DNA from: Escherichia phage HX01
Reading direction: 5' to 3' (one strand)
Sequence record: NC_018855.1
DNA length: 64,000 nucleotides
A model generated the notes under the pieces. That model did no database searches and was not told the origin of the DNA. It saw only the letters and a list, made by a program, of their open reading frames with translations. The position numbers and the translations under genes are program-made. Of the stretch, positions 19,487 through 58,925 are shown one piece after another (the first letter of the stretch is position 1; each line of letters opens with the position of its first letter).

Positions 19487-20467
19487 ATGTTCAACGTTCA
19501 AATCAAAAAAGGTATCTATCGTAATAACGAAATCTCCGGTTCTTATGTTGCCACAAAGACATGGTTCCCGGCAAAGCTTAATCCTGAATGTTCCCACTTA
19601 GGTGACGGTAAAATTTTCGTTATGATCGATGGTTCTGAACGTGGAGTATGGGTCTTCAAATCAGACATCGTAATGGAAGGAGTTGAGACGTCACCAGTTG
19701 CAGTTGTTGAAAGCACTGAAGATATGAAAACTCGTATCAACAAACGCTTTAAAGTAATGAACATGATGACGAATGGCATTATCGATGGCAAAATTCGTTC
19801 ACTCATTATTTCAGGTGCAGCTGGTATTGGTAAGACGTATTCTCTGGATAAAGCACTTAATAATGCTAATGATAACGGTTTCATCAAATACAAAAGCATT
19901 AATGGTAAAATCTCTGGTATTGGCCTTTACGAACAACTTTGGCTCAACCGTGATGCGGACAGCGTTCTCTTAATCGACGACGTTGACGTATTCTCAGATA
20001 TGGACATCTTGAACCTTCTTAAAGCAGCATTAGATACTGGAGATAAACGCAAAGTTTGCTGGAGCACTGCGTCATCTTATCTCGATGATAAGGGTATTGA
20101 TAAAGAATTTGAGTTTGAAGGTACTATCGTTTTCATTACAAACGTTGATATCGATAAAGAGTTAGAACGCGGTTCGAAACTTGCCCCACACCTTCAAGCT
20201 TTAGTATCTCGTTCAGTGTATCTCGACCTTGGAGTACACTCTAATGAAGAGATTATGGTTCGAGTTGAAGATGTAATATTATCTACTGACATGATGCAGA
20301 AACGTGGTCTGACGGATGCAGAAACGTATAAAGCATTGTCCTGGATGAAGGCCAACGTATCTCGTCTTCGCAATGTATCATTACGTACGGCTCTTTATGT
20401 AGCAGATTTTATTTCAACTGATAAAGATGGTTGGGAAGAAATCTCTGAAGTAACTTTACTGAAATAA
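19487..20467 (+). CDS. P-loop NTPase (Walker A GAAGIGKT, Walker B-like LLIDDVD)
   Basis: ORF track 19466..20467; ATG 19487 has SD GGAG. Confidence 0.65.
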   Translation: MFNVQIKKGIYRNNEISGSYVATKTWFPAKLNPECSHLGDGKIFVMIDGSERGVWVFKSDIVMEGVETSPVAVVESTEDMKTRINKRFKVMNMMTNGIIDGKIRSLIISGAAGIGKTYSLDKALNNANDNGFIKYKSINGKISGIGLYEQLWLNRDADSVLLIDDVDVFSDMDILNLLKAALDTGDKRKVCWSTASSYLDDKGIDKEFEFEGTIVFITNVDIDKELERGSKLAPHLQALVSRSVYLDLGVHSNEEIMVRVEDVILSTDMMQKRGLTDAETYKALSWMKANVSRLRNVSLRTALYVADFISTDKDGWEEISEVTLLK

Positions 20468-21541: not shown

Positions 21542-22537
21542 ATGAGCATTACATCTGATGCGGTAAAACATGAAATTAACGGTTTATGTGCTTCACAGAT
21601 TAAAGTATGGTTTAAAGACCATAATGATCGCAGAGCACTTAATTATGAGCAAATTGCTATCCAAGTTCATCAATTACTGACTAGTAAATTTGATTTTCAT
21701 ATGCCGTCTGAAATCTATACTAATCTACCGCGAGCGCTTATTAAAGCGTGTAAAGGTTACGGAAAATCAATGGCCGATGGAATCTTCAGCGCGCTGAATA
21801 AACTTAACGTTCTGTCGATGATTAACTCTAACAACATCCTGCGTAATCTAGGACGTACTGATTTGTTCGGTCGTGAACAGTGTAAAATGCCTTTGAAATG
21901 GATTGTTGCTCATCTTAACGAGAACCAAACACGTTTTATGGCCGTATCAGCACGCTTACAAATGGGCCTAGATCGTCAGATGAACTTTAAAACTCATCCA
22001 CGGTATTCAGGTTCAACAGACTTTTATAAATGTGAGCTTCAAAAGGTTGCAGGTAAAACTGTCTTAGTAGTTCGTGTAACGTTTGAAGGACGACGTCAAG
22101 GATATTTTGACCTAATCGGCTCTGGTCTTAAACATTGTGGATTTATTGACGAAGTTGATATTAAGCGAGACGGCATTGGATACCGTATTGGATATGTTTG
22201 TACTCTTAAAGAAGAGATTTCAGGACCAGCACCAGGACTAAAAGACGTTAGATATAAAGACGAGCTTGTTGAAGAAATAAAAGAAGTTGAATATGATATC
22301 AACCAAGAAGATGCTCTTAAAGACCTTATTGATGAACTAAACCAAGACATTATTCCGGTTCAGAAATTTGAATCAAAACATGTTGAGCAAATCAAATACT
22401 TTGAAGCTTTGATTAACGAACTTAATGTAACTATTCAACAGACTGATGATGAAATCTCACGATTAGCAGGCTTAAATGGTAAAAATAAAACGGAACGAGC
22501 TAATCTTATTCAAGTAGTAAAACTTCTTAAGGAATGA
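21542..22537 (+). CDS. hypothetical protein with C-terminal coiled coil
   Basis: 331 aa. Confidence 0.6.
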   Translation: MSITSDAVKHEINGLCASQIKVWFKDHNDRRALNYEQIAIQVHQLLTSKFDFHMPSEIYTNLPRALIKACKGYGKSMADGIFSALNKLNVLSMINSNNILRNLGRTDLFGREQCKMPLKWIVAHLNENQTRFMAVSARLQMGLDRQMNFKTHPRYSGSTDFYKCELQKVAGKTVLVVRVTFEGRRQGYFDLIGSGLKHCGFIDEVDIKRDGIGYRIGYVCTLKEEISGPAPGLKDVRYKDELVEEIKEVEYDINQEDALKDLIDELNQDIIPVQKFESKHVEQIKYFEALINELNVTIQQTDDEISRLAGLNGKNKTERANLIQVVKLLKE

Positions 22538-22566
22538 TGTACAACCAGGGATGGTTGGAGTATAAT
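22538..22566 (+). promoter_or_regulatory. early-type promoter (TGTACA -35, TATAAT -10)
   Basis: GGATGGTTGGAGTATAAT. Confidence 0.5.
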
Positions 22567-22592
22567 AAATTTTTCAACATGAGGAATATAAA

Positions 22593-23528
22593 ATGGCTTC
22601 TATTACACGTAGAGAACTTATCAAAGAATTTACCTCGAACGCATATACCCCAGGACCTAATCCTATCCGTATGCCTGTAAAGACTCCTGAAGAGATTGAG
22701 GAAATCTGTTCATATTATGGGATTAATTCTCGTAAGTTTACTCAATTTGAATGCGTTACTAACACACCCGTTAAAGAGTTCATTAAAAATGGTGAGTTCA
22801 GCCGTTTATTAGCCAAACAGAAACTTCGTAATTTTTGTATTGGCGGTGAAGGACAATATTTCGCTAAGCAGTTCAGGAATAACCTTAACAATCTGATGGC
22901 CATTGCTTCTCGTATTCGTCCTCAAGCAATTAACATGAAACATTTGAAATATACTTACGATAAGTTAGAAATCATGGTTATCAGTGAGAACGAGTTCACT
23001 CTTACGTATAAACCTAAGAATGATAACGTTGCTCGTGTATTCCACCAAGCGTTGGAAGTGTTAGGTGATAATATCCACCAGATTAAAGCAATTTATTCTC
23101 GTGAGCTTAATATTATCAACCCTATCAAGAATAAGGGCCATATCGCTATCCAGGCTCGTGTATCTATTGGTAAAAAGGTTCCTGCGCCATGGTGGCACAA
23201 AGACTCTGAATACTATCAAAATCTTAAAAAGGAAAATGCAACGTTCGAAGCGTCAATTACTACAACCCCAATTGGCAATGCTGAAGTTCAAGGTGCATAT
23301 TTTACTGCTCCATCTATATACACTTCACCGTCGACTAAACTGGAAATCTCTAACGGTCTTCTTCCTGCCGAAGATTACTATTATAATCAAATCAAAGCCA
23401 CTGTGGACCAACTGTCTGTTGAACTTGACAAAGCACAAGCTAAGCTTCGTGATGCTCAACAAGTAGTTACCAAGCTCCAGTTGCAGTACTCTAAACTTTT
23501 TAACGCAATGAATGCATTAAAATCATAA
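22593..23528 (+). CDS. hypothetical protein with C-terminal coiled coil
   Basis: 311 aa. Confidence 0.6.
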   Translation: MASITRRELIKEFTSNAYTPGPNPIRMPVKTPEEIEEICSYYGINSRKFTQFECVTNTPVKEFIKNGEFSRLLAKQKLRNFCIGGEGQYFAKQFRNNLNNLMAIASRIRPQAINMKHLKYTYDKLEIMVISENEFTLTYKPKNDNVARVFHQALEVLGDNIHQIKAIYSRELNIINPIKNKGHIAIQARVSIGKKVPAPWWHKDSEYYQNLKKENATFEASITTTPIGNAEVQGAYFTAPSIYTSPSTKLEISNGLLPAEDYYYNQIKATVDQLSVELDKAQAKLRDAQQVVTKLQLQYSKLFNAMNALKS

Positions 23529-32875: not shown

Positions 32876-33433
32876 ATGACTGAACAAAAACCTAAAAATA
32901 ACTATGTGAATAATAAAGAGCTTCTCGCCGCTATAATCGAGTGGAAAAAGGAGCTCTTAAATAATAAAGACCCAAACAAAATTATTCGTCAGAATGATAC
33001 CATCGGTTTAGCAATTATGCTTATCGCCGAAGGCCTGTCTAAACGTTTCAACTTTTCAGGATATACCCAGTCTTGGAAGCAGGAGATGATTGCAGATGGG
33101 ATTGAAGCCTCTATTAAGGGACTTCATAATTTCGACGAAACTAAGTACAATAACCCACATGCATACATAACTCGAGCTTGTTTTAATGCTTTTGTCCAAC
33201 GTATCAAAAAAGAGCGTAAGGAAGTTGCAAAGAAATATAGTTACTTCGTTCATAATGTCTACGACAGTCATGACGATGATATGGTAGCGTTGGTAGATGA
33301 AACGTTTATTCAAGACATCTACGATAAAATGACGCATTATGAAGAATCCGCTTATAAAGCTCCTGGGGCTGAAAAGAAGGAAGTTGTTAGCGATTCGCCT
33401 AGTTTGGATTTTTTATATGAGGATGACAATTGA
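32876..33433 (+). CDS. 55: late-transcription sigma factor gp55
   Basis: 185 aa; NYVNNKELL...[39 protein letters not shown] matches T4 gp55. Confidence 0.95.
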
Positions 33434-33632
33434 CATCTCTAACTACTTAGAAGAACCTTTTGACGAAGCAATCCCTTATTTGGTAAAACTGTTGGGTCGT
33501 GAATTTAAAATTAATTTTGACATCGACCCTTTGAACCCACATGACGTGTCATTTTCGATAAATGGGACTCCGGTTGAGTATGAGTTCTGTATTGAAGAGG
33601 ATGGACGTTTTTATTTTAATTTAATGAGATAA
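33417..33632 (+). CDS. hypothetical protein
   Basis: ORF track 33339..33632 overlaps gene 55; start uncertain. Confidence 0.4.
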
Positions 33633-33633
33633 T

Positions 33634-33957
33634 ATGACTACCGAGATTATTGAAAATAAAGAAGCAGAAGATGCAGTAGCTAAAATGCTACAAGAAATCC
33701 AAAAGAAAAATGAAGCTGAAGCACGTAAAAAATCCGAAAAGATTCTTAAAAAGAATCGTTTTGAACTAAACCGTCTTTATGCTCATGCTCAAGAAGCAGC
33801 AATTCAAAACAACTTCGAAGCTTACGAATATGCTATTAAGAAATCTCGGGATATTCTACGACAACCATATAATGACAAGTTAATTAAAATCCAGTGGATT
33901 ACTACTCGTCAGGCTATTGAGGACATCATTAATGGCGCTAGTTCAAACAAAGTTTAA
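33634..33957 (+). CDS. hypothetical protein
   Basis: 107 aa. Confidence 0.55.
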   Translation: MTTEIIENKEAEDAVAKMLQEIQKKNEAEARKKSEKILKKNRFELNRLYAHAQEAAIQNNFEAYEYAIKKSRDILRQPYNDKLIKIQWITTRQAIEDIINGASSNKV

Positions 33958-34138
33958 ACGTCTTAATCTGAACGCAGGGTTCACCCTTAAATTGGGAGGT
34001 CCTCTTTGTGTTAAAATTTCTGAAAAGGAATATCACGACGGTTCTATTACAGAAATTTGTCCGCCTATTGTAAAGGCAGACCCAAAACAACTCGTGTGGG
34101 TTGATTCATTTCAAGTTAAGAAATGGTGGAAACGATGA
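33932..34138 (+). CDS. hypothetical protein
   Basis: ATG 33932 after SD GAGGA. Confidence 0.45.
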   Translation: MALVQTKFKRLNLNAGFTLKLGGPLCVKISEKEYHDGSITEICPPIVKADPKQLVWVDSFQVKKWWKR

Positions 34139-34177
34139 TAGAAATCGATTTAGGTATTTTCTGAGAGGTGATTATGT

Positions 34178-34354
34178 ATGACGAACACCCAGACTTCTGA
34201 AATAGATTATAATAAAATTCGTTCCTCTAAAGTAGAAATGATGAGACGCTTTAAAGAGTCTCATGATAAAGCTAAAGCAGAAGGAACTATAACATATAAG
34301 CCCATTCGATTTAAAAGTTCAAATGAGCCTCTGTACGGTGTACTATGTGGATAG
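34178..34354 (+). CDS. hypothetical protein (58 aa)
   Basis: ATG after SD GAGAGG; read manually; followed by terminator. Confidence 0.45.
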   Translation: MTNTQTSEIDYNKIRSSKVEMMRRFKESHDKAKAEGTITYKPIRFKSSNEPLYGVLCG

Positions 34355-34378
34355 GAACTCTTCGGAGTTCCTTTTTTG
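34353..34378 (+). terminator. rho-independent terminator
   Basis: AGGAACTC-TTCG-GAGTTCCT then TTTTTT. Confidence 0.75.
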
Positions 34379-34423
34379 CTTTATAAACGGATGATAGAAT
34401 GAATTAACTAATGAGGAAATAAT

Positions 34424-35443
34424 ATGAAAATTTTGCACTTAGGCGACTTCCATATCGGAGTCAAACAAGACGACCCATGGGTTCAAGATATTCAACGTGA
34501 TGGTATTCGTCAAGCAATTGAATACTCTAAGAAACATGGGATTAAAACTTGGATTCAGTACGGTGATTGGTTTGACGTCCGTAAAGCAATAACACATCGT
34601 ACAATGGAATTCAATCGTGAAATTGTTGATATGATTTCTAAAGCAGGCATTCACGTTCATGTCACGATAGGAAACCATGACATGGCGTTTAAGAATACAA
34701 TAACACCTAACACTGTTTCTGAATTGTTAACTCAATTTGAAAACTTTACTATTTACGAGCATCCAACTACTGTTGATTTTGACGGATGTCTGATTGATAT
34801 CGTTCCATGGATGTGCGAAGAAAATACAGGTGAAATCTTAGAGCACATCAAGACTTCTTCTGCCGCGTATTGTGTTGGGCACTGGGAACTGAACGGCTTT
34901 TATTTCTATAAAGGAATGAAGTCTCATGGGCTTGAACCTGATTTCTTAAAGACCTACAAACAAGTCTGGTCCGGCCACTTCCACACAATCTCTGAAGCTG
35001 CTAACGTCAAATATATTGGGACACCATGGACCCTTACTGCAGGTGATGAGAACGACCCACGCGGATTCTGGGTATTTGACACTGATGTTGAACGTATGGA
35101 ATTTATTCCTAATGAAACAACATGGCATCGACGAATCACTTATCCGTTTAAAGGCAAAATCAATTATTCTGATTATACTAATCTAGCCGTACGTGTTATA
35201 GTATCAGAAATTGATTCAGAGTTGACTAAGTTTGAATCTGAACTTGAAAAAGTAGTTCACTCTCTTCGTATGGTTTCTAAAGTTGATAACAGTGTTGAAT
35301 CTGATGACGACCAGGAAATCGAGATTAAATCACTTCAAGATATCATTAAAGAATATATTGACGCGATTCCAGATATCTCAGACGAAGACAGAGAAGCGCT
35401 GGTCAAATATTCCAACGAACTTTATATTGAGGCAACACAATGA
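34424..35443 (+). CDS. 47: recombination nuclease subunit gp47 (Mre11-like)
   Basis: MKILHLGDFHIG...GNHD phosphoesterase motifs. Confidence 0.93.
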   Translation: MKILHLGDFHIGVKQDDPWVQDIQRDGIRQAIEYSKKHGIKTWIQYGDWFDVRKAITHRTMEFNREIVDMISKAGIHVHVTIGNHDMAFKNTITPNTVSELLTQFENFTIYEHPTTVDFDGCLIDIVPWMCEENTGEILEHIKTSSAAYCVGHWELNGFYFYKGMKSHGLEPDFLKTYKQVWSGHFHTISEAANVKYIGTPWTLTAGDENDPRGFWVFDTDVERMEFIPNETTWHRRITYPFKGKINYSDYTNLAVRVIVSEIDSELTKFESELEKVVHSLRMVSKVDNSVESDDDQEIEIKSLQDIIKEYIDAIPDISDEDREALVKYSNELYIEATQ

Positions 35444-43816: not shown

Positions 43817-44452
43817 ATGAAAACTACTCCTATTACTATCGCTATTGACGCAATCATAAAACAAGCTTCTTCTTTGGTCGCTATGGCCAAAGTAATTAGT
43901 CAAAACCCTGCTCGTTATAATGCTATTCTAGAAACTCTTCGACGCCCAGGACTTAGTAATTATGAAAGCCGAGTAATTATTACAGGTGTTGGTAAGAATG
44001 CTAATATTGCAACTAAAGCTTCTGAGACATTTGCTTCACTCGGTATCCCGAGTATGTACTTGAACACTGGACATTATTCTCACGGTGATGCAGGATTCAT
44101 TGCGCCTAATGATGTGTTGATTCATATTAGTCGTTCTGGTAAAACTGAAGAAATGATAGGCGTGGCTAAGCATCTTAAAATGATTCGTCCGAACGTCAAA
44201 CAGATTCTGTTGCATTGTAACCCGGACATTCCACAAGAATACGAAGCTCTTTTTGATTATACGTTCTGTACAGGCATCGCAGTAGAGGTTGATGAGAATT
44301 CTCTGGCTCCGACCATGTCCACTACATTGTTGTTAGCGCTTATCGATACGTTTGCTATCAACCTTTCGTCTGAACGTGGATTTACCTCTAATGACTTCCT
44401 TAAGTTCCACCCTGGCGGTGCACTAGGTGCCATGTTACGAGGCGAACAATGA
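43817..44452 (+). CDS. SIS-domain sugar-phosphate isomerase (arabinose-5-phosphate isomerase / phosphoheptose isomerase-like)
   Basis: ITGVGKNANIATKASETF and HISRSGKTEE match SIS-domain signatures. Confidence 0.75.
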   Translation: MKTTPITIAIDAIIKQASSLVAMAKVISQNPARYNAILETLRRPGLSNYESRVIITGVGKNANIATKASETFASLGIPSMYLNTGHYSHGDAGFIAPNDVLIHISRSGKTEEMIGVAKHLKMIRPNVKQILLHCNPDIPQEYEALFDYTFCTGIAVEVDENSLAPTMSTTLLLALIDTFAINLSSERGFTSNDFLKFHPGGALGAMLRGEQ

Positions 44453-44592
44453 AAGCAATAACAATAGGACTTTTACTATTGATGCTTGTCATGACTATCT
44501 ACTGGAGCTTAACGACTCCAGTAATGATTCCGACTCTTATAATCGGATGGATTATGATTGGACTACAAGCAAAGTATGAATGCTTTAACTAG
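44449..44592 (+). CDS. 47-aa membrane peptide
   Basis: ATGA-coupled to SIS gene; two hydrophobic stretches; read manually. Confidence 0.4.
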   Translation: MKAITIGLLLLMLVMTIYWSLTTPVMIPTLIIGWIMIGLQAKYECFN

Positions 44593-44633
44593 AATAGTGT
44601 ACAATACTCCTACTTACCAATGAGGACCACAAC

Positions 44634-46319
44634 ATGAAAAAAGCTGTTATTCTTGGTGCTGGACTGGCAACTCGTTTGTATCCAATAACGCATCATATTC
44701 CTAAGGTGCTTGTTAACTATAAACAAGACACTATTCTGAGCAATTTGTATACAATTTATTCTGACCTTGGCGCAGATGAAATTATTGTAGTAGTTCATTC
44801 AAAATTTGCTGAAACTGTTCGAGCTTATTGTGAGCAAGAAGGGTTCAATGTGACTATTCGTACAGTTGATGAAGCGTATGGTTCTGCTTATGCTCTTGCT
44901 AAATTGCACAAAGATTTAGACGGCCATAATGTAATTGTTAACTGGTGTGATATTATTCCTGATTTTGGTTCATGGTCTTGGAATGTTAACGCAATCTATG
45001 TTAAAGGTGACGAATGTCGATATAATTTCGACGGTGAAAATATCACTAACGTAGGTTCAACAGGTGGTAATGTTGTAGGAATTTATCAGTTCAAAGACTG
45101 GGAATTCTATATGGGTTCTACCGATGAGGAAATTCATGAATACTGCAAAGGACGTGATTTCGTAGAATTCCTTTACGGCAGTGCATTCAATAAATCAGAG
45201 CTTATGAATCTAATTGATTTAGGTGATATGCCTAAACTTGAAAAGGCTCATGAAGTTCGTGAACTTAATCGTAGTTTTAATGCCGTTGAAATTGGTGAAG
45301 AAACTGTAACTAAATTCGCATTAACCGAACAAGGCCGAGCTCTTCAGAAAGATGAGATTTCATGGTATCTTAAAGTGAAATCAGATTCAGTTCCTCAGTT
45401 AGTTTCTGTTAATGAAAATAACTTTGAAATGGAACGCATTAAAGGTAAGCCGGCATTTGAATATATTAAATCCAAATCGAGTCTTGCTCGTCCACAAATT
45501 GTTGATGCAATTTTAGATGCACTGAAATTCAGCACAGACACTTATTTTGTAAGTCCTGAAACTGTTCGTCGTGATTTCACTAAAGAATTCTATACTAAAG
45601 TTATTGATCGTTGTGAAAGTATTCAACCATTGATTGATTCATTTGGTAAAATCACACATGTGAACTACACTAAGATTGGGCGTCTGAAGCCAATGTTGAA
45701 ACAAGCTTTAGAACACCTTATTCGTTATCATAACCGTTCTCAGGGACAGTACTCTGTTATTCATGGTGACCCGAACTTCAGTAATACTATGATTACTGAT
45801 AATGGTGAAGTCAAGTTTATCGACCCTCGTGGATATTTTGGTGAAACCAAGATTTATGGACCAAAATTGTACGACGAAGCTAAAGTGCTTTATGCTGTTT
45901 CAGGTTATGATGAATTCAACGCTAATCCGACCTGGGGACAGTTTACTATTGACGAAACAACTTGTAATGTGTCTATTAACATCAATCCATTAGTTTACAA
46001 ATATGGAAAGATGAGTTCGTTTAACGAGTATCATCATTTGGCAGTGGCAATTATCTGGATTGCATTAGGTGGTTATTTCAAGAATAATCCACTTAAAGCG
46101 GTAGCCGCATATTATAAAGGTATGGAACTTCTGACTAAGCAATTACGTAACATGGGCCGTGTACTTCAGGACGGCTCTATTAGTTATGACGTAGCAGAAC
46201 CTGTAACGGCTACTCTGATTACAAAAAATCCTGGTAAATGGGTACTAACTGATAAAGAAACTGGTGTTTCCTATCGTCCAATCGGTGGCGATATCACTCA
46301 TCAATGGGAACGAATCTAA
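44634..46319 (+). CDS. bifunctional sugar-1-phosphate nucleotidyltransferase / sugar kinase
   Basis: N-terminal GAGLATRLYPITHHIPKVL (G-x-G-T-R-x-x-P motif); C-terminal HGDPNFSNTMI and FIDPRGYFG (APH/ChoK-like kinase motifs). Confidence 0.75.
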   Translation: MKKAVILGAGLATRLYPITHHIPKVLVNYKQDTILSNLYTIYSDLGADEIIVVVHSKFAETVRAYCEQEGFNVTIRTVDEAYGSAYALAKLHKDLDGHNVIVNWCDIIPDFGSWSWNVNAIYVKGDECRYNFDGENITNVGSTGGNVVGIYQFKDWEFYMGSTDEEIHEYCKGRDFVEFLYGSAFNKSELMNLIDLGDMPKLEKAHEVRELNRSFNAVEIGEETVTKFALTEQGRALQKDEISWYLKVKSDSVPQLVSVNENNFEMERIKGKPAFEYIKSKSSLARPQIVDAILDALKFSTDTYFVSPETVRRDFTKEFYTKVIDRCESIQPLIDSFGKITHVNYTKIGRLKPMLKQALEHLIRYHNRSQGQYSVIHGDPNFSNTMITDNGEVKFIDPRGYFGETKIYGPKLYDEAKVLYAVSGYDEFNANPTWGQFTIDETTCNVSININPLVYKYGKMSSFNEYHHLAVAIIWIALGGYFKNNPLKAVAAYYKGMELLTKQLRNMGRVLQDGSISYDVAEPVTATLITKNPGKWVLTDKETGVSYRPIGGDITHQWERI

Positions 46320-46762: not shown

Positions 46763-47923
46763 ATGAATACTTTTAAAATCGGAACGAATTTTGATTTAGC
46801 TCTTCTTGATAAAATCGTAGAGCTCAATAAAACTTATCCTAATAGCTTGATAAACGAAGTATACGGCTCTACAAGAGAAATGGCTTTTGTAGCAGCCAGA
46901 CCTGATTTTAGGCTTCCTGACGTTGACAAAAAGATGTTAGAAGATTATGTTAAACGTTGTAACGAATTAGGTATTTGCTTTAACTATACACTCAACACGA
47001 TAAATCCTGGTTCAAAAAGAGAACTAGTTGAGTGGAAGAAGAAAGCTATTCAGGATTATGTTCAGTATCTTTGGTCAATAGGCGTATGGCGTATTACTAT
47101 CGCTAACCCTGTTGTTATGGAAATTGTTCGTGAAGTCAATAAAGACATTGAGATTGAAGTTTCAACAATTCTACATGTCGATGCTGTAACTCAAATCAAA
47201 TACTTGCATGACCAATATAATATCAAAAAGGTCTGCTGTGGAATTCATAAGAACCGTTCAGTTTCTTTCCTGAAACGTGCAGCAGAGTTTTGTAATAAGA
47301 ACAATATAATATTTGAAGTTCTTGTAAATGAGTTCTGTTCTAATGCTGGTAAAGGGTACACAACACATTGTAGCTATCGTGACTCTTGCTATATTTTCCA
47401 TAGCACCGATGTTACAGTAGATGATGCCAAATCCTTAAATGGATATCCAATGCAACACTGTATTAAAGCTCGTGATACAGATCCATTTAACTGGTTGAGA
47501 ACTCGTTTTGTTCGTCCTCAAGATTTGAAACTTTATAATGATATTGGTATCACTCAATTTAAAGTTTCGGGACGTACAGGTAGCACAGACTACATTTTGA
47601 AAGTTCTTGAAGCTTATGCTTCTGAAAAGTTTGAAGGCAATTTGTTGGAATTGTGGAAGCCTTTAGAGACCATTTTCACTCTTGAAAATGAGACCGAGTT
47701 TTCACATACAGTAAATATTGAAACCTCTTTGTTAGACGGCTTTTTAGAAAAAAGGTGGTTCAAACATCCAGATTTCGATTGTGCTAATGAAATCTGCGGG
47801 ACGACGTGTACATATTGTGAAAGATATTATAAACGTCAGTTATCTAAAAATGGGTTATCAGAAAACTCTATATCTATTATTGATATAACTAACTCTGATG
47901 ACGCTTTGAGGTACCCAGAATGA
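46763..47923 (+). CDS. peptidase-U32-family-like protein with Cys cluster
   Basis: FKVSGRTGS resembles the U32 LKIEGRTKS motif; EFCSNAGKGYTTHCSYRDSC and C-terminal CANEICGTTCTYC. Confidence 0.5.
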   Translation: MNTFKIGTNFDLALLDKIVELNKTYPNSLINEVYGSTREMAFVAARPDFRLPDVDKKMLEDYVKRCNELGICFNYTLNTINPGSKRELVEWKKKAIQDYVQYLWSIGVWRITIANPVVMEIVREVNKDIEIEVSTILHVDAVTQIKYLHDQYNIKKVCCGIHKNRSVSFLKRAAEFCNKNNIIFEVLVNEFCSNAGKGYTTHCSYRDSCYIFHSTDVTVDDAKSLNGYPMQHCIKARDTDPFNWLRTRFVRPQDLKLYNDIGITQFKVSGRTGSTDYILKVLEAYASEKFEGNLLELWKPLETIFTLENETEFSHTVNIETSLLDGFLEKRWFKHPDFDCANEICGTTCTYCERYYKRQLSKNGLSENSISIIDITNSDDALRYPE

Positions 47924-48000
47924 TTTCTAGAAAAACTTTTAACCACCAACTTAACGAAGAGATTTTGACTATTAAAATTAACAGCAACGAACAAATTCTT

Positions 48001-48025
48001 AAAAAGGCCCATAAGGGCCTTTTTG
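48001..48025 (+). terminator. possible terminator
   Basis: AAAAAGGCCC-ATAA-GGGCCTTTTT; lies inside a possible 51-aa ORF. Confidence 0.4.
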
Positions 48026-48161
48026 AAACTAAAGCGGCTAAAGTGATTAAAGAACCTGTTCAACTAGAATACTAAGCCGAAGCTCTACGTTATATCAACA
48101 TCGCTAAGAAATTCAAATAAGCTTTATGAATTGAGTATATAATAACTGTATTGAGGTAAAC

Positions 48162-48878
48162 ATGGGAAAACATAACACAATGAAATATATTAAAGCCGCA
48201 GATTTTCAATCCGCATTTAAAGCTGTCAATCGTGAAATTTTAGAAAATCCACAGTTCATTACTGATTCTCGTATTGGACGTTGTAATGAAATTGGGTCTA
48301 TGACAGTAGTTGTTGATACCCCTTCATCATTCAAAATGACCGACCCACGTATTAATCGCATCTCTTATGAATATGCTGAAGATTTCTGGAAATTTATGAT
48401 TTCTGGTGGTACTGATGCAAAAGAAGCATTTAAGGCATATCCTAACGTCGCTAAATTTATTTCTAAACCTAAATCAGACGCTTTGCCTGCAAACTTCAAC
48501 ACTTTCTATGGTCCACGAATTGCGGCCCAGTTACCAACTCTTCTAAAAGAACTTAAAGAAAAACCTAACTCTCGAAGAGTTGTGTTCCAAATTCTAGAAA
48601 GTTCTGATCAGGCTTTGCTTGATTCAGACGAAACACTTGAATATCCATGTACTGACTCAGTGACTTATTATATTCGTGATGGTAAGCTTTATACCCACTG
48701 TCATATGCGTTCTCAGAACTGTGCTGTTGTTATGCAGTTGGATTTTTATCTCCAAGGAAAATTACTTCATTATATCGCTAACGAATGTGGTGTAGAAGTT
48801 GGTGATTATACTCATACCATGGTAAGTGCCCATGTGTTTGAACGTGATTTTGATTATGTTAAAGGATTCCTTGACTAA
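48162..48878 (+). CDS. 42: thymidylate-synthase-fold pyrimidine hydroxymethylase (gene 42-like, divergent)
   Basis: RRVVFQI, PCTDSVTYYIRDGKLYTHCHMRSQN, QLDF align to TS / dCMP-hydroxymethylase core motifs, with Asp at the cytosine-specificity position. Confidence 0.65.
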   Translation: MGKHNTMKYIKAADFQSAFKAVNREILENPQFITDSRIGRCNEIGSMTVVVDTPSSFKMTDPRINRISYEYAEDFWKFMISGGTDAKEAFKAYPNVAKFISKPKSDALPANFNTFYGPRIAAQLPTLLKELKEKPNSRRVVFQILESSDQALLDSDETLEYPCTDSVTYYIRDGKLYTHCHMRSQNCAVVMQLDFYLQGKLLHYIANECGVEVGDYTHTMVSAHVFERDFDYVKGFLD

Positions 48879-49777
48879 TGGCTATTTTCCGCGTACCTAT
48901 TTTGAGTATGCGGTCTTATGAAACTGGACAGTATGCTATCCTTAAGGATGGCAACTTCCAACTTCATTTGCACCGTGCTAATCCGGGTGATGTGATTACA
49001 TATCCACGTAATGCATCTGATATTAAAGAATGTGAACGTCTTTTCCCAGAATTTAAGTTTGTTCCATTATGGTATAAAGATAACGCATATAACACTCGTA
49101 AATATTTCTGGTCTGAAAATGAATTTGTGGTTGATTCATTAATTGATTATTATGATTGTGATTTTCTAATCACAGATATCACTGGATATGACGGCACTTT
49201 TGACGTAGAATTCAATTTCAATATCACTGCAGACCCTAATAAACCACGTTTTTATATTGACGAATTCTTAAAAACCGACATGTTGTCTGTTAATCGTTCA
49301 CTTCAAACTACTGTGTTGAATGAACGTCAAAAAGAAGTGCTGGTTAACGCAGGTGCAGATGGTAATAAGATTATCGTAACGCAGAAAGTTATACGTCCTT
49401 CCATCATGCAGCGTCTTGTAGGTGATTTGGCCCCTATTCATCTAGATGGTATTTTTCATCCATTTCGAATTAGTGACCCGTGTTATCGTTTTGAACAAGT
49501 GGTTGAATGCGCAATTCAATTAGGTCAACCGCTTTATATAACCGATCCAAATAATAGCTTCGACAGAAATAAGTATCCTGAAGAAGCACTGATTCGAATT
49601 TTTAAACCAACTAAAACTGAGTACTATCAAATTCTTAAAGGAAGACCGAAGATTCAATATTTCGAAAATCCTGAAGAAGTATTCCATCCAGGTCTTGGCG
49701 AGTTCATCTACTTTAACGCTTTAATTTCTTCACCGTATAATATACCTAAATATGAAGATGTCGTAATCGAGGAATAA
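48878..49777 (+). CDS. hypothetical protein; candidate DNA glycosyltransferase by position
   Basis: 299 aa in the slot where T4 has beta-gt; no diagnostic motif recognised. Confidence 0.35.
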   Translation: MAIFRVPILSMRSYETGQYAILKDGNFQLHLHRANPGDVITYPRNASDIKECERLFPEFKFVPLWYKDNAYNTRKYFWSENEFVVDSLIDYYDCDFLITDITGYDGTFDVEFNFNITADPNKPRFYIDEFLKTDMLSVNRSLQTTVLNERQKEVLVNAGADGNKIIVTQKVIRPSIMQRLVGDLAPIHLDGIFHPFRISDPCYRFEQVVECAIQLGQPLYITDPNNSFDRNKYPEEALIRIFKPTKTEYYQILKGRPKIQYFENPEEVFHPGLGEFIYFNALISSPYNIPKYEDVVIEE

Positions 49778-49778
49778 A

Positions 49779-50327
49779 ATGGCTAAAATTATTTTAGTAG
49801 ATGGCCCAGATAATGCTGGTAAAACAACTTTCATTAATGACATAATGGAAATTAGTGAAAGATATGTAAAGATTGATTTCCCTAAACGAACAGTTGATGG
49901 ACGTTTCGATGTTAAGTCTCGAAATGAAGTTGGCTGTTTCGAAACGATGTTGAATTATTTAGACCCTACTAAGATTTATCTGTTAGACCGTGGATATATT
50001 AGTAACTGGGTTTATGGACGTATTCGACAAGATGCGGACTCGGTTCTTGACGTTTATGAACAGGATTATGTTCGTCTTTGCCAAAACCATGATGTGTTCA
50101 CAATTATTTTAACACGTAACGAAATGACTGAAAGTTTTGAAGACGACCTTATTACTTTGTCTTCATTCGGTTTTAATACAGTCATTTCATATTTTGAAGA
50201 GTTTGCAATTCATAACGAAATCCAAACGTATCAATTACTTAATCATGATGGTGCTAACAAAGTTATAGGATTTAATGCAAGCGAACGTAATGGTTTGATT
50301 ACAGAAATTATCAAATGGGCTCGTTAA
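49779..50327 (+). CDS. P-loop kinase (nucleoside/nucleotide or small-molecule kinase-like)
   Basis: Walker A VDGPDNAGKTT, LLDRGY motif. Confidence 0.6.
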   Translation: MAKIILVDGPDNAGKTTFINDIMEISERYVKIDFPKRTVDGRFDVKSRNEVGCFETMLNYLDPTKIYLLDRGYISNWVYGRIRQDADSVLDVYEQDYVRLCQNHDVFTIILTRNEMTESFEDDLITLSSFGFNTVISYFEEFAIHNEIQTYQLLNHDGANKVIGFNASERNGLITEIIKWAR

Positions 50328-55113: not shown

Positions 55114-55362
55114 ATGGAATTATTCGTAGCTAGTTCAGTAGCGGTTTTAATCGCAGGTATTGGTTCAATCATCATTTACATGTTGCCTTGGGTAATCGCA
55201 CTTATTCGTGGCACAAAAAGCACAACAGCAATCTTTTTTGTATCTTTACTCTTTAACTGGACGATGATTGGTTGGATTGGAACTTTAATTTGGTCTATCG
55301 TTGCCGAAAAGAAATCTGCCCAGCAGCCTCAACAAGTAATTATTATTCGCGAAAAAGAATAA
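55114..55362 (+). CDS. small two-TM membrane protein
   Basis: 82 aa, two hydrophobic helices. Confidence 0.6.
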   Translation: MELFVASSVAVLIAGIGSIIIYMLPWVIALIRGTKSTTAIFFVSLLFNWTMIGWIGTLIWSIVAEKKSAQQPQQVIIIREKE

Positions 55363-58313: not shown

Positions 58314-58403
58314 AATATCTCCTTAGTTACCTTATTATTTATTACGCTTTATAAAATTAATGTTAGAATTAACTTCTCTTATACTGAATTGAAAGGAAAA
58401 ATA

Positions 58404-58925
58404 ATGGCACACTTTAACGAATGTTCACAACTTATTTCTGGTGTTGATAAAGCAGAAGAAGCTTATTTTAATGCTCTGATTCACGAAGATAAAGACCCAC
58501 TGCAGGTAATGCTTGATATGCAGAAATCTTTACAGGTTCGTCTGGCAAATGACAAGCCTGAACATAACAAACATCCTGATGAATTAGCCACTGCTGGCGA
58601 TGTTGTTGATTGGCTGCGTAATCAGAAAGATTATATTGATGATGAATTCCGTGAACTGCTGACTTCACTTGGTGGTATGAGCAATGGTGAAAAAGCCGCT
58701 AGCTCTGTATGGAAGCCGTGGAAGGCACAACATGCTGAATATCGAAATCGTCGTATCGATGAACTGTCTCCTGAAGACCAGCTTGAAATTAAATTCGAGA
58801 TGATTGATATCCTCCACTTTGTTCTGAATATGTTCCAAGGTCTGGGTCTTTCCGCTGAAGAAATCTTTAAACTGTATTACCTGAAAAACCAACACAACTT
58901 TGAACGCCAGGATAATGGTTACTGA
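58404..58925 (+). CDS. 56: dCTPase/dUTPase gp56 (MazG-like)
   Basis: MAHFNECSQLISGVDKAEEAYFNAL...; position after primase as in T4. Confidence 0.85.
   Translation: MAHFNECSQLISGVDKAEEAYFNALIHEDKDPLQVMLDMQKSLQVRLANDKPEHNKHPDELATAGDVVDWLRNQKDYIDDEFRELLTSLGGMSNGEKAASSVWKPWKAQHAEYRNRRIDELSPEDQLEIKFEMIDILHFVLNMFQGLGLSAEEIFKLYYLKNQHNFERQDNGY

Follow-up and report, generated by a model that had tools for sequence, protein, structure and literature searches.

The 64,000-nucleotide stretch of Escherichia phage HX01 that we analysed (NC_018855.1; hereafter the window) very probably belongs to a Mosigvirus in which the glucosyl-hmC system of T4 is replaced by an arabinosyl-5-hydroxycytosine system. An empty alpha-gt slot together with an alternative modification is already known for the RB69-like (Mosigvirus) phages. 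Arabinosylation and the missing glucosyltransferases of RB69 were reported by Thomas et al. 2018 (PMC6024577), and arabinosyl-5-hydroxycytosine and most of its enzymes by Lee et al. 2026 (PMC13326640) and, as cited in other papers, by Mahler et al. 2025 and He et al. 2026. The practical value of the present analysis is the correct annotation of Mosigvirus genomes. The modification governs how well restriction, CRISPR, and type IV systems act on such phages, and is relevant to choosing them for therapy.

The + strand of the window corresponds to the direction of T4 early transcription. A DNA search with the segment spanning genes 55 to 47 matched 133 phage records at 95-99% identity, and the best DNA matches were Mosigvirus PhAPEC2 (98.2%) and phage HY126 (98.1%). 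Over the window, the PhAPEC2 annotation reads nrdD, nrdG, nrdH, 55.x, 55, a-gt.x, 47, 46, 45, 44, 62, regA, 43, an RB69-specific block, uvsX, 40, and 41. This T4-like order, combined with the RB69-specific block, identifies the window as part of an RB69-like T-even phage. The features of the slot and its two borders are as follows.

32876-33433, + strand: gene 55 for the late sigma factor, bordering the slot on the left (phrog_234, E 3.7e-68; 91% identity to T4 gp55).
33423-33632, + strand: a-gt.5 ortholog, 69 aa, with an alternative ATG at 33417 (Pfam DUF5491, E 5e-13; 47% identity to T4 a-gt.5).
33634-33957, + strand: a-gt.4 ortholog, 107 aa (Pfam DUF2654, E 1.6e-27; 58% identity to T4 a-gt.4).
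33932-34138, + strand: a-gt.3 ortholog, 68 aa (phrog_1648, E 1.3e-33, matched from residue 7; 68% identity to T4 a-gt.3).
34178-34354, + strand: a-gt.2 ortholog, 58 aa (Pfam DUF5486, E 4e-38; 91% identity to T4 a-gt.2).
34353-34378, + strand: terminator-like UUCG-tetraloop hairpin and T run directly 3' of a-gt.2 (terminator scan; like the hairpins 3' of T4 a-gt.2 and T4 a-gt).
34377-34400, + strand: putative MotA-box type middle promoter 5' of gene 47 (TGCTTTA, 11 nt, TAGAAT; pattern search; homologous modules flank T4 mobB/a-gt).
34424-35443, + strand: gene 47 for an SbcD-like nuclease subunit, bordering the slot on the right (phrog_100, E 1.6e-135; Pfam Metallophos; 76% identity to T4 gp47).

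The interval from gene 55 to gene 47 (33434-34423) thus measures 990 bp and contains four + strand ORFs of 69, 107, 68, and 58 aa, the length of the a-gt.3 ortholog being counted from an ATG inside the TTG-started ORF at 33917-34138. Since every base is taken either by coding sequence or by a 69-bp regulatory spacer, there is no room for an alpha-gt remnant. The hairpin at 34353-34378 is formed by AGGAACTC-TTCG-GAGTTCCT and followed by the T run, with its arms given as GGAACTC-TTCG-GAGTTCC. The putative promoter at 34377-34400 is one of 14 sites in the window that match the MotA-type pattern, against 3.4 by chance. An Rfam scan of the interval gave one sub-threshold match to a fungal snoRNA, which we discarded. 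A preliminary description of this DNA, made from its letters and open reading frames, had held that the alpha-gt slot was empty. This is borne out by the four ORFs of under 110 aa, the terminator, and the lack of any alpha-gt homolog by tblastn. That account of the slot is accurate, except that the small ORFs it left anonymous are conserved genes that lie beside a-gt in T4 too.

T4 has the order 55, a-gt.5, a-gt.4, a-gt.3, a-gt.2, mobB, a-gt, 47.1, and 47, with an interval of 3152 bp. Comparing synteny with T4, as the preliminary description had suggested, revealed that exactly three genes (mobB, a-gt, and 47.1) are absent from the slot of the window, and that orthology and gene order are kept on either side of it (62-91% protein identity). 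At the first T4 junction, a-gt.2 is followed by the hairpin GGAGC-TTCG-GCTCC, a MotA box (TTGCTTTA), a -10 element, and mobB. At the second, a-gt is followed by another hairpin, AGGGC-TTCG-GCCCT, and then by AGCTTTA, TATAAT, and 47.1. Hairpin-promoter modules are therefore present in two copies around the T4 mobB/a-gt cassette and in a single copy, leading into gene 47, in the window. Such an arrangement fits a gain or loss of the mobB/a-gt cassette via recombination between the modules. Promoter/stem-loop cassettes of T4-type phages, said to have been described by Arbiol et al. 2010, reportedly flank shuffled accessory genes. The likeness to these lies in a hairpin followed by a promoter, both at the ends of the T4 cassette and at the junction in the window. 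However, the promoter in the window is of the MotA-box middle type, not the early type, and its part in the gain or loss of a-gt is a putative one.

Recombination between the two similar hairpin and MotA-promoter modules that flank the T4 cassette could also have excised it from this one isolate, leaving behind one copy as in the window, and the interval would then be the scar of a recent deletion rather than a lineage trait. We give this reading practically no credence. The same a-gt-less layout recurs in more than 130 Mosigvirus records (95-99% identity), and the interval holds no a-gt remnant. Moreover, Dhakavirus JS10 has the order 55, a-gt.5,.4,.3,.2, 47.1, and 47, again with a-gt absent. 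Because JS10 belongs to a separate genus, the a-gt-less layout is best regarded as a trait of the lineage and not as a recent scar.

When the window was searched with the T4 glucosyltransferases by tblastn, alpha-gt gave only noise (best E 0.011), and beta-gt (best E 4.5) had no homolog after the gene 42 homolog or elsewhere in the window. The best alpha-gt match, at 19613-19852, falls within an NrdC.10-like ORF that weakly matches AAA-ATPases, and was treated as chance. As the window is only part of its own genome (about 38% of about 168 kb, with about 100 kb lying outside), we also searched the PhAPEC2 genome in full (98% identity over the query). The preliminary description had taken canonical glucosylation to be lacking, and had stated that an ortholog of alpha-gt or beta-gt at another place in the genome would overturn this view. 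In PhAPEC2, neither alpha-gt (best E 0.076) nor beta-gt (best E 4.6) had a homolog, and so the view stands for the window and for the complete genome of this relative. By comparison, alpha-gt homologs occur in 657 other phage records, mainly those of T4-like Escherichia, Shigella, and Klebsiella phages. That canonical alpha-gt or beta-gt has moved into the sequence outside the window is very improbable. The window does leave most of the genome uncovered, and T4-like genomes do shuffle accessory genes, as with imm, which together with imm.1 lies in the 43-42 interval of T4 and is found at 55114-55359 in the window. Against such a move, nothing better than the E values above was recovered from PhAPEC2, its annotation lists no glucosyltransferase, and RB69 is without homologs of both enzymes (PMC13326640).

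In place of the glucosyltransferases, the genes expected for arabinosyl-5-hydroxycytosine are located mainly between gene 43 and uvsX, as listed here.

43817-44452, + strand: arabinose-5-phosphate isomerase, homolog of RB69 gp55 (Pfam SIS; NCBIfam KpsF/GutQ, E 2e-32, and KdsD, E 1e-30; 210/211 identical to HY126).
44634-46319, + strand: bifunctional sugar nucleotidyltransferase and kinase in one 561-aa ORF, HY126 AfhE or RB69 gp52:53 (546/561 identical to HY126; function from PMC13326640).
46319-46705, + strand: HAD-type sugar phosphatase, HY126 AfhF or RB69 gp51 (NCBIfam TIGR01689 capsule biosynthesis phosphatase, E 4.6e-13; 127/128 identical to HY126).
46763-47923, + strand: U32-family protein, RB69 gp50 (Pfam Peptidase_U32, E 6e-11; 384/386 identical to HY126).
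48162-48878, + strand: thymidylate-synthase homolog in the gene 42 position, expected to be a 5-hydroxy-dCMP synthase like RB69 gp48 and the HY126 enzyme (236/238 identical to PDB 9iqc; activity from PMC13326640).
48878-49777, + strand: GT-B fold glycosyltransferase in the beta-gt position, 299 aa, putative arabinosyltransferase 1, RB69 gp46:47 (predicted fold).
49779-50327, + strand: thymidylate-kinase-like nucleotide kinase, RB69 gp45 (phrog_761, E 1.3e-44; 181/182 identical to HY126).
58389-58925, + strand: gp56-type dCTPase with an uncertain start codon (Pfam dUTPase_2; position matching gp56 of PhAPEC2; putative role, from T4 biology).

An isomerase, a kinase/nucleotidyltransferase, a phosphatase, a thymidylate-synthase homolog, and a glycosyltransferase are therefore co-located between gene 43 and uvsX, the combination that defines the arabinosyl-5hoC cluster of Straboviridae. 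All seven cluster proteins share 97-99.6% identity with their HY126 counterparts, and the order of the cluster genes is the same in PhAPEC2, HY126, and LC53. In the ORF at 44634-46319, an N-terminal NTP_transferase domain is followed by weak kinase-family matches in the middle and C-terminal parts. With respect to the HY126 and RB69 system (He et al. 2026 Nat Chem Biol; Lee et al. 2026 NAR, PMC13326640; Mahler et al. 2025 Cell Host Microbe), the gene order from 43 to uvsX is the same, and the alpha-gt slot of HY126 is equally empty. The cluster in the window departs from that of HY126 by point substitutions and by a small ORF 3' of the U32 gene that is shortened to 51 aa (a 39-nt deletion and a stop). 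In the window, unlike in the RB69 reference record, one intact ORF encodes the glycosyltransferase and another the nucleotidyltransferase-kinase. Mono- and di-arabinosyl-5-hydroxycytosine are found in RB69 and HY126 DNA (PMC13326640), and Mosigvirus NP has the same arabinosyl-5-hydroxycytosine modification (PMC13390438). Because the cluster is nearly identical to that of HY126, including the 5-hydroxy-dCMP synthase and the GT-B enzyme, the DNA to which the window belongs can be expected to carry arabinosyl-5-hydroxycytosine.

The protein in the gene 42 position aligns with T4 gp42 at 24% identity over 218 aa (E 6e-10). This is far below the 62-91% identity that its core neighbours (gp43, 44, 45, 46, 47, 55, and 41) share with their T4 counterparts, and so a close gp42-type relationship was not seen. 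Instead, it matches PDB entries 9iqc and 9ir2 at 236 of 238 residues, the differences being I33V and T126A. As these same two substitutions separate it from the protein encoded by the HY126 genome, the crystal structure in 9iqc and 9ir2 is that of the HY126 enzyme. RB69 gp48 carries FMN and converts dCMP to 5-hydroxy-dCMP, with the oxygen atom coming from O2 as traced by 18O label (PMC13326640). For HY126, He et al. 2026 are quoted in the same paper for the flavin in the crystal structure and for a reconstituted reaction. Moreover, NMR and MS of RB69 DNA place an ether link directly on C5 (PMC13326640). From its sequence, the ORF at 48162-48878 is thus expected to be a flavin- and O2-dependent 5-hydroxy-dCMP synthase and not a hydroxymethylase.

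The preliminary description had instead supposed that a hydroxymethylase is kept and that hmC bears a different decoration. In essence, this is the model of 2018, by which a gp42-type hydroxymethylase makes hydroxymethyl-dCMP and arabinose or some other non-glucose sugar is put on hmC. The enzyme in the gene 42 position is indeed a member of the thymidylate-synthase superfamily, arabinosyl-hmC was what Thomas et al. 2018 reported for RB69 (PMC6024577), and RB69 gp48 shares the two active-site substitutions by which dCMP-using hydroxymethylases are typified (PMC13326640). Still, we consider this model unlikely in the extreme, given the low identity to T4 gp42 beside the well-conserved core proteins, the 99% identity to an HY126 enzyme crystallised with flavin, and the 5-hydroxy-dC product (18O from O2) and C5 ether link found for RB69 (PMC13326640). 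In fact, it has already been refuted for RB69 and HY126, and the hmC assignment is superseded (PMC13390438). The retained hydroxymethylase must therefore be given up for an FMN/O2-dependent 5-hydroxy-dCMP synthase. Since the HY126 enzyme and RB69 gp48 are both 5-hydroxy-dCMP synthases, the decorated base should be 5-hydroxycytosine, not hmC, and what survives of the earlier proposal is that the decoration differs from that of T4. For the gene 42 homolog in Mosigvirus genomes, the names dCMP hydroxymethylase and thymidylate synthase should be avoided.

Directly 3' of this gene, the 299-aa protein occupies the beta-gt position. It had been described as unrelated, and was recognised by fold comparison only. 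Its predicted structure has two Rossmann-like domains that superpose on known GT-B enzymes, with high model confidence in the model built with a 54-sequence alignment (a single-sequence AlphaFold model, with a pLDDT of 37.9, was unusable). By sequence and profile comparison, the 299-aa family has no similarity to T4 alpha-gt, T4 beta-gt, or the gp3-like second glycosyltransferase (hhalign probability of 0.1 for beta-gt), and the protein has no match in a PDB sequence search, Pfam, or NCBIfam. Its position and its lack of sequence similarity to beta-gt are consequently as first described. Unrelated, however, is not a fitting word for a GT-B fold glycosyltransferase that is published as putative arabinosyltransferase 1. 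Likewise, a search for GT-B glucosyltransferase homologs, as proposed earlier, leads to this fold and to no sequence homolog of alpha-gt or beta-gt. The arabinosyltransferase 1 role of RB69 gp46:47 is itself a prediction, the individual DLP3 glycosyltransferases are inactive on 5hoC-containing DNA, and the authors could not tell if the first arabinose goes onto the nucleotide or onto DNA (PMC13326640). The prediction for the 299-aa GT-B enzyme is that it links the first arabinose to the 5-hydroxyl. For annotation purposes, this hypothetical protein is a candidate DNA-modifying glycosyltransferase. A second arabinosyltransferase, the homolog of RB69 gp3, is represented in PhAPEC2 by LD34_gp003, at a site between rIIA and gene 39 that lies about 6.6 kb past the end of the window.

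The alpha-gt cassette is simply missing, the four a-gt.x genes running into one hairpin and middle-promoter module and then gene 47. Taken together, the modification in this phage very probably proceeds as follows. The gene 42-position homolog would hydroxylate dCMP at C5, an activity shown for the RB69 enzyme and for that of HY126 (99% identical). The gp56 dCTPase would remove dCTP, with the result that only the modified nucleotide is incorporated, and the dNMP kinase would presumably channel that nucleotide into DNA. UDP-arabinofuranose would be supplied by the isomerase, the kinase/nucleotidyltransferase, and the HAD phosphatase, as shown for HY126 according to the literature. The sugar-activation enzymes AfhE and AfhF of HY126 were characterised by He et al. 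(as quoted in PMC13326640). The first arabinose would then be placed on the 5-hydroxyl by the 299-aa enzyme, and the second, by prediction, would come from the second GT-B enzyme adjoining rIIA, outside the window. For this second glycosyltransferase, as for the dNMP kinase and for the lack of alpha-gt and beta-gt beyond the window, we rely on the relatives.

This scheme shares a common logic with T4, in that C5-modified dCMP is made before replication by a thymidylate-synthase homolog, dCTP is excluded by gp56, and sugar is transferred by GT-B enzymes. In addition, the synthase and one transferase have the same chromosomal positions (the gene 42 and beta-gt slots). Unlike T4, the window is without alpha-gt, beta-gt, mobB, and 47.1 in the sites searched. 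The synthase, 24% identical to gp42, would use flavin/O2 hydroxylation instead of folate-dependent hydroxymethylation. Moreover, the sugar would be arabinofuranose from phage-encoded enzymes, not host UDP-glucose, and the 299-aa enzyme resembles neither of the T4 transferases in sequence or profile.

Within the same cluster, the U32-family protein (46763-47923) is labelled in RB69, as gp50, only as a 'sugar or heterocycle reductase' (PMC13326640). Its alignment of 30 sequences has ten invariant cysteines (158, 177, 192, 203, 209, 233, 340, 345, 349, and 352), and its score of 19 bits against the UbiU equivalog is far under the cut-off of 440. Among cellular U32 proteins, which are O2-independent hydroxylases with prephenate as the oxygen donor, RlhA and TrhP are responsible for 5-hydroxycytidine in rRNA and 5-hydroxyuridine in tRNA, respectively, and UbiU/V carry out anaerobic hydroxylation of ubiquinone precursors (PMC5727448, PMC6599085, PMC10990095). 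By analogy with these, we tentatively put forward, as a possibility that we hold to be less probable than its negation, that the U32 protein may act as an O2-independent, prephenate-dependent C5 hydroxylase of dCMP or DNA cytosine, an anaerobic counterpart of the neighbouring flavin 5hodCMP synthase. Between the U32 and hydroxylase genes of Serratia phage LC53, and overlapping the U32 stop, lies the gene for a true chorismate mutase (PF01817, 44.6 bits), an enzyme whose product is prephenate. PhAPEC2, for its part, has a gene for a genuine DAHP synthase (TIGR00034, 428 bits, cut-off 173).

Phage records with the U32 gene number 220. The ten genera listed for them are all Enterobacterales, hosts able to live without oxygen, and the matches further include a Shewanella phage. 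The glycosyltransferase is found in 57 Acinetobacter phages, and Acinetobacter is not among the ten genera listed for the U32 gene. On large phage-like metagenomic contigs, U32 homologs of about 55% identity adjoin genes for dCMP deaminase, a thymidylate-kinase-like protein, UDG, and a DnaE-type polymerase. An anaerobic route to 5-hydroxycytosine would fit the chorismate mutase of LC53, the DAHP synthase of PhAPEC2, the host range, the metagenomic neighbours, and the invariant cysteines. Counting against an anaerobic hydroxylase, Dhakavirus JS10, an E. coli phage, has the cluster without the U32 gene. Also against it, the small Mosigvirus ORF 3' of the U32 gene, in the position of the LC53 enzyme, is not a chorismate mutase, as its PhAPEC2 counterpart of 79 aa neither matches CM_2 nor resembles the LC53 protein. 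No paper linking U32 proteins to phage DNA modification was found in a literature search whose coverage stopped short of He 2026 and Mahler 2025, which may address the point. Were the U32 protein such a hydroxylase, gut phages could make 5-hydroxycytosine without oxygen, which would explain how a modification pathway that depends on O2 is able to work in the anoxic gut, and prephenate-dependent hydroxylation would be extended to DNA precursors.

Three features of the cytosine-modification cluster, which lies between gene 43 and uvsX, are considered here:

44581-44605, a second promoter pattern of the MotA type, a short way upstream of the gene (44634) for the nucleotidyltransferase-kinase
46763-47923, a U32-family protein
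47920-48075, a small ORF downstream of the U32 gene, homologous to RB69ORF049c

The U32-family protein has 10 invariant cysteines, and we consider that it may be an oxygen-independent hydroxylase. In phage LC53, a Serratia phage, a chorismate mutase adjoins the U32 homolog, and homologs on large metagenomic phage contigs have dCMP deaminase and polymerase genes as neighbors. A module comprising a thymidylate-kinase-like protein, UDG, a DnaE-type polymerase, dCMP deaminase, a U32 protein, and SSB occurs on L009 (a 466-kb JGI contig) and L010/L011, all of them large, phage-like, and metagenomic. This module is a hint that other groups of phages may have a pyrimidine modification not yet described. 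As for the shikimate pathway, which leads to prephenate and whose first enzyme is DAHP synthase, the Mosigvirus relative PhAPEC2 carries a bona fide gene for this enzyme, flanked by cd and cd.2 and situated outside the window:

L005 (PhAPEC2) 21943-22935, DAHP synthase of the AroFGH type (TIGR00034, 428 bits)

The RB69ORF049c homolog seems to be decaying in the window's lineage. In the window, a 39-nt deletion with a stop codon at its end leaves 51 aa, versus 79 aa in PhAPEC2. The version in HY126, a relative with a characterised modification cluster, is likewise short (40 aa).

The second MotA-type pattern suggests that the sugar-activation genes are expressed in the middle mode. The arabinose-activation genes occupy the position that imm holds in T4; there, imm is found between genes 43 and 42, whereas in the window it is downstream of gene 41:

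55114-55359, imm, superinfection immunity gene

Moreover, the glycosyltransferase (48878-49777, 299 aa) and the nucleotidyltransferase-kinase (44634-46319, 561 aa) are each encoded by one unbroken ORF in the window. This supports PMC13326640, which states that sequencing errors account for the splitting of ORFs 46/47 and 52/53 in the reference record of RB69.

At the junction between genes 55 and 47, the following ortholog is found:

34178-34354, a-gt.2 ortholog (58 aa, DUF5486)

In a single comparison with T4 (L002), this protein is 91% identical and so better conserved than gp47 (76%) or DNA polymerase (62%). The window has a single UUCG hairpin with a MotA-box middle promoter after it (34353-34400). 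T4 has two such modules, one after a-gt.2 and one after a-gt. Together the T4 copies bracket the mobB/a-gt cassette, and such hairpin-promoter modules may mark the breakpoints for a-gt gain or loss.
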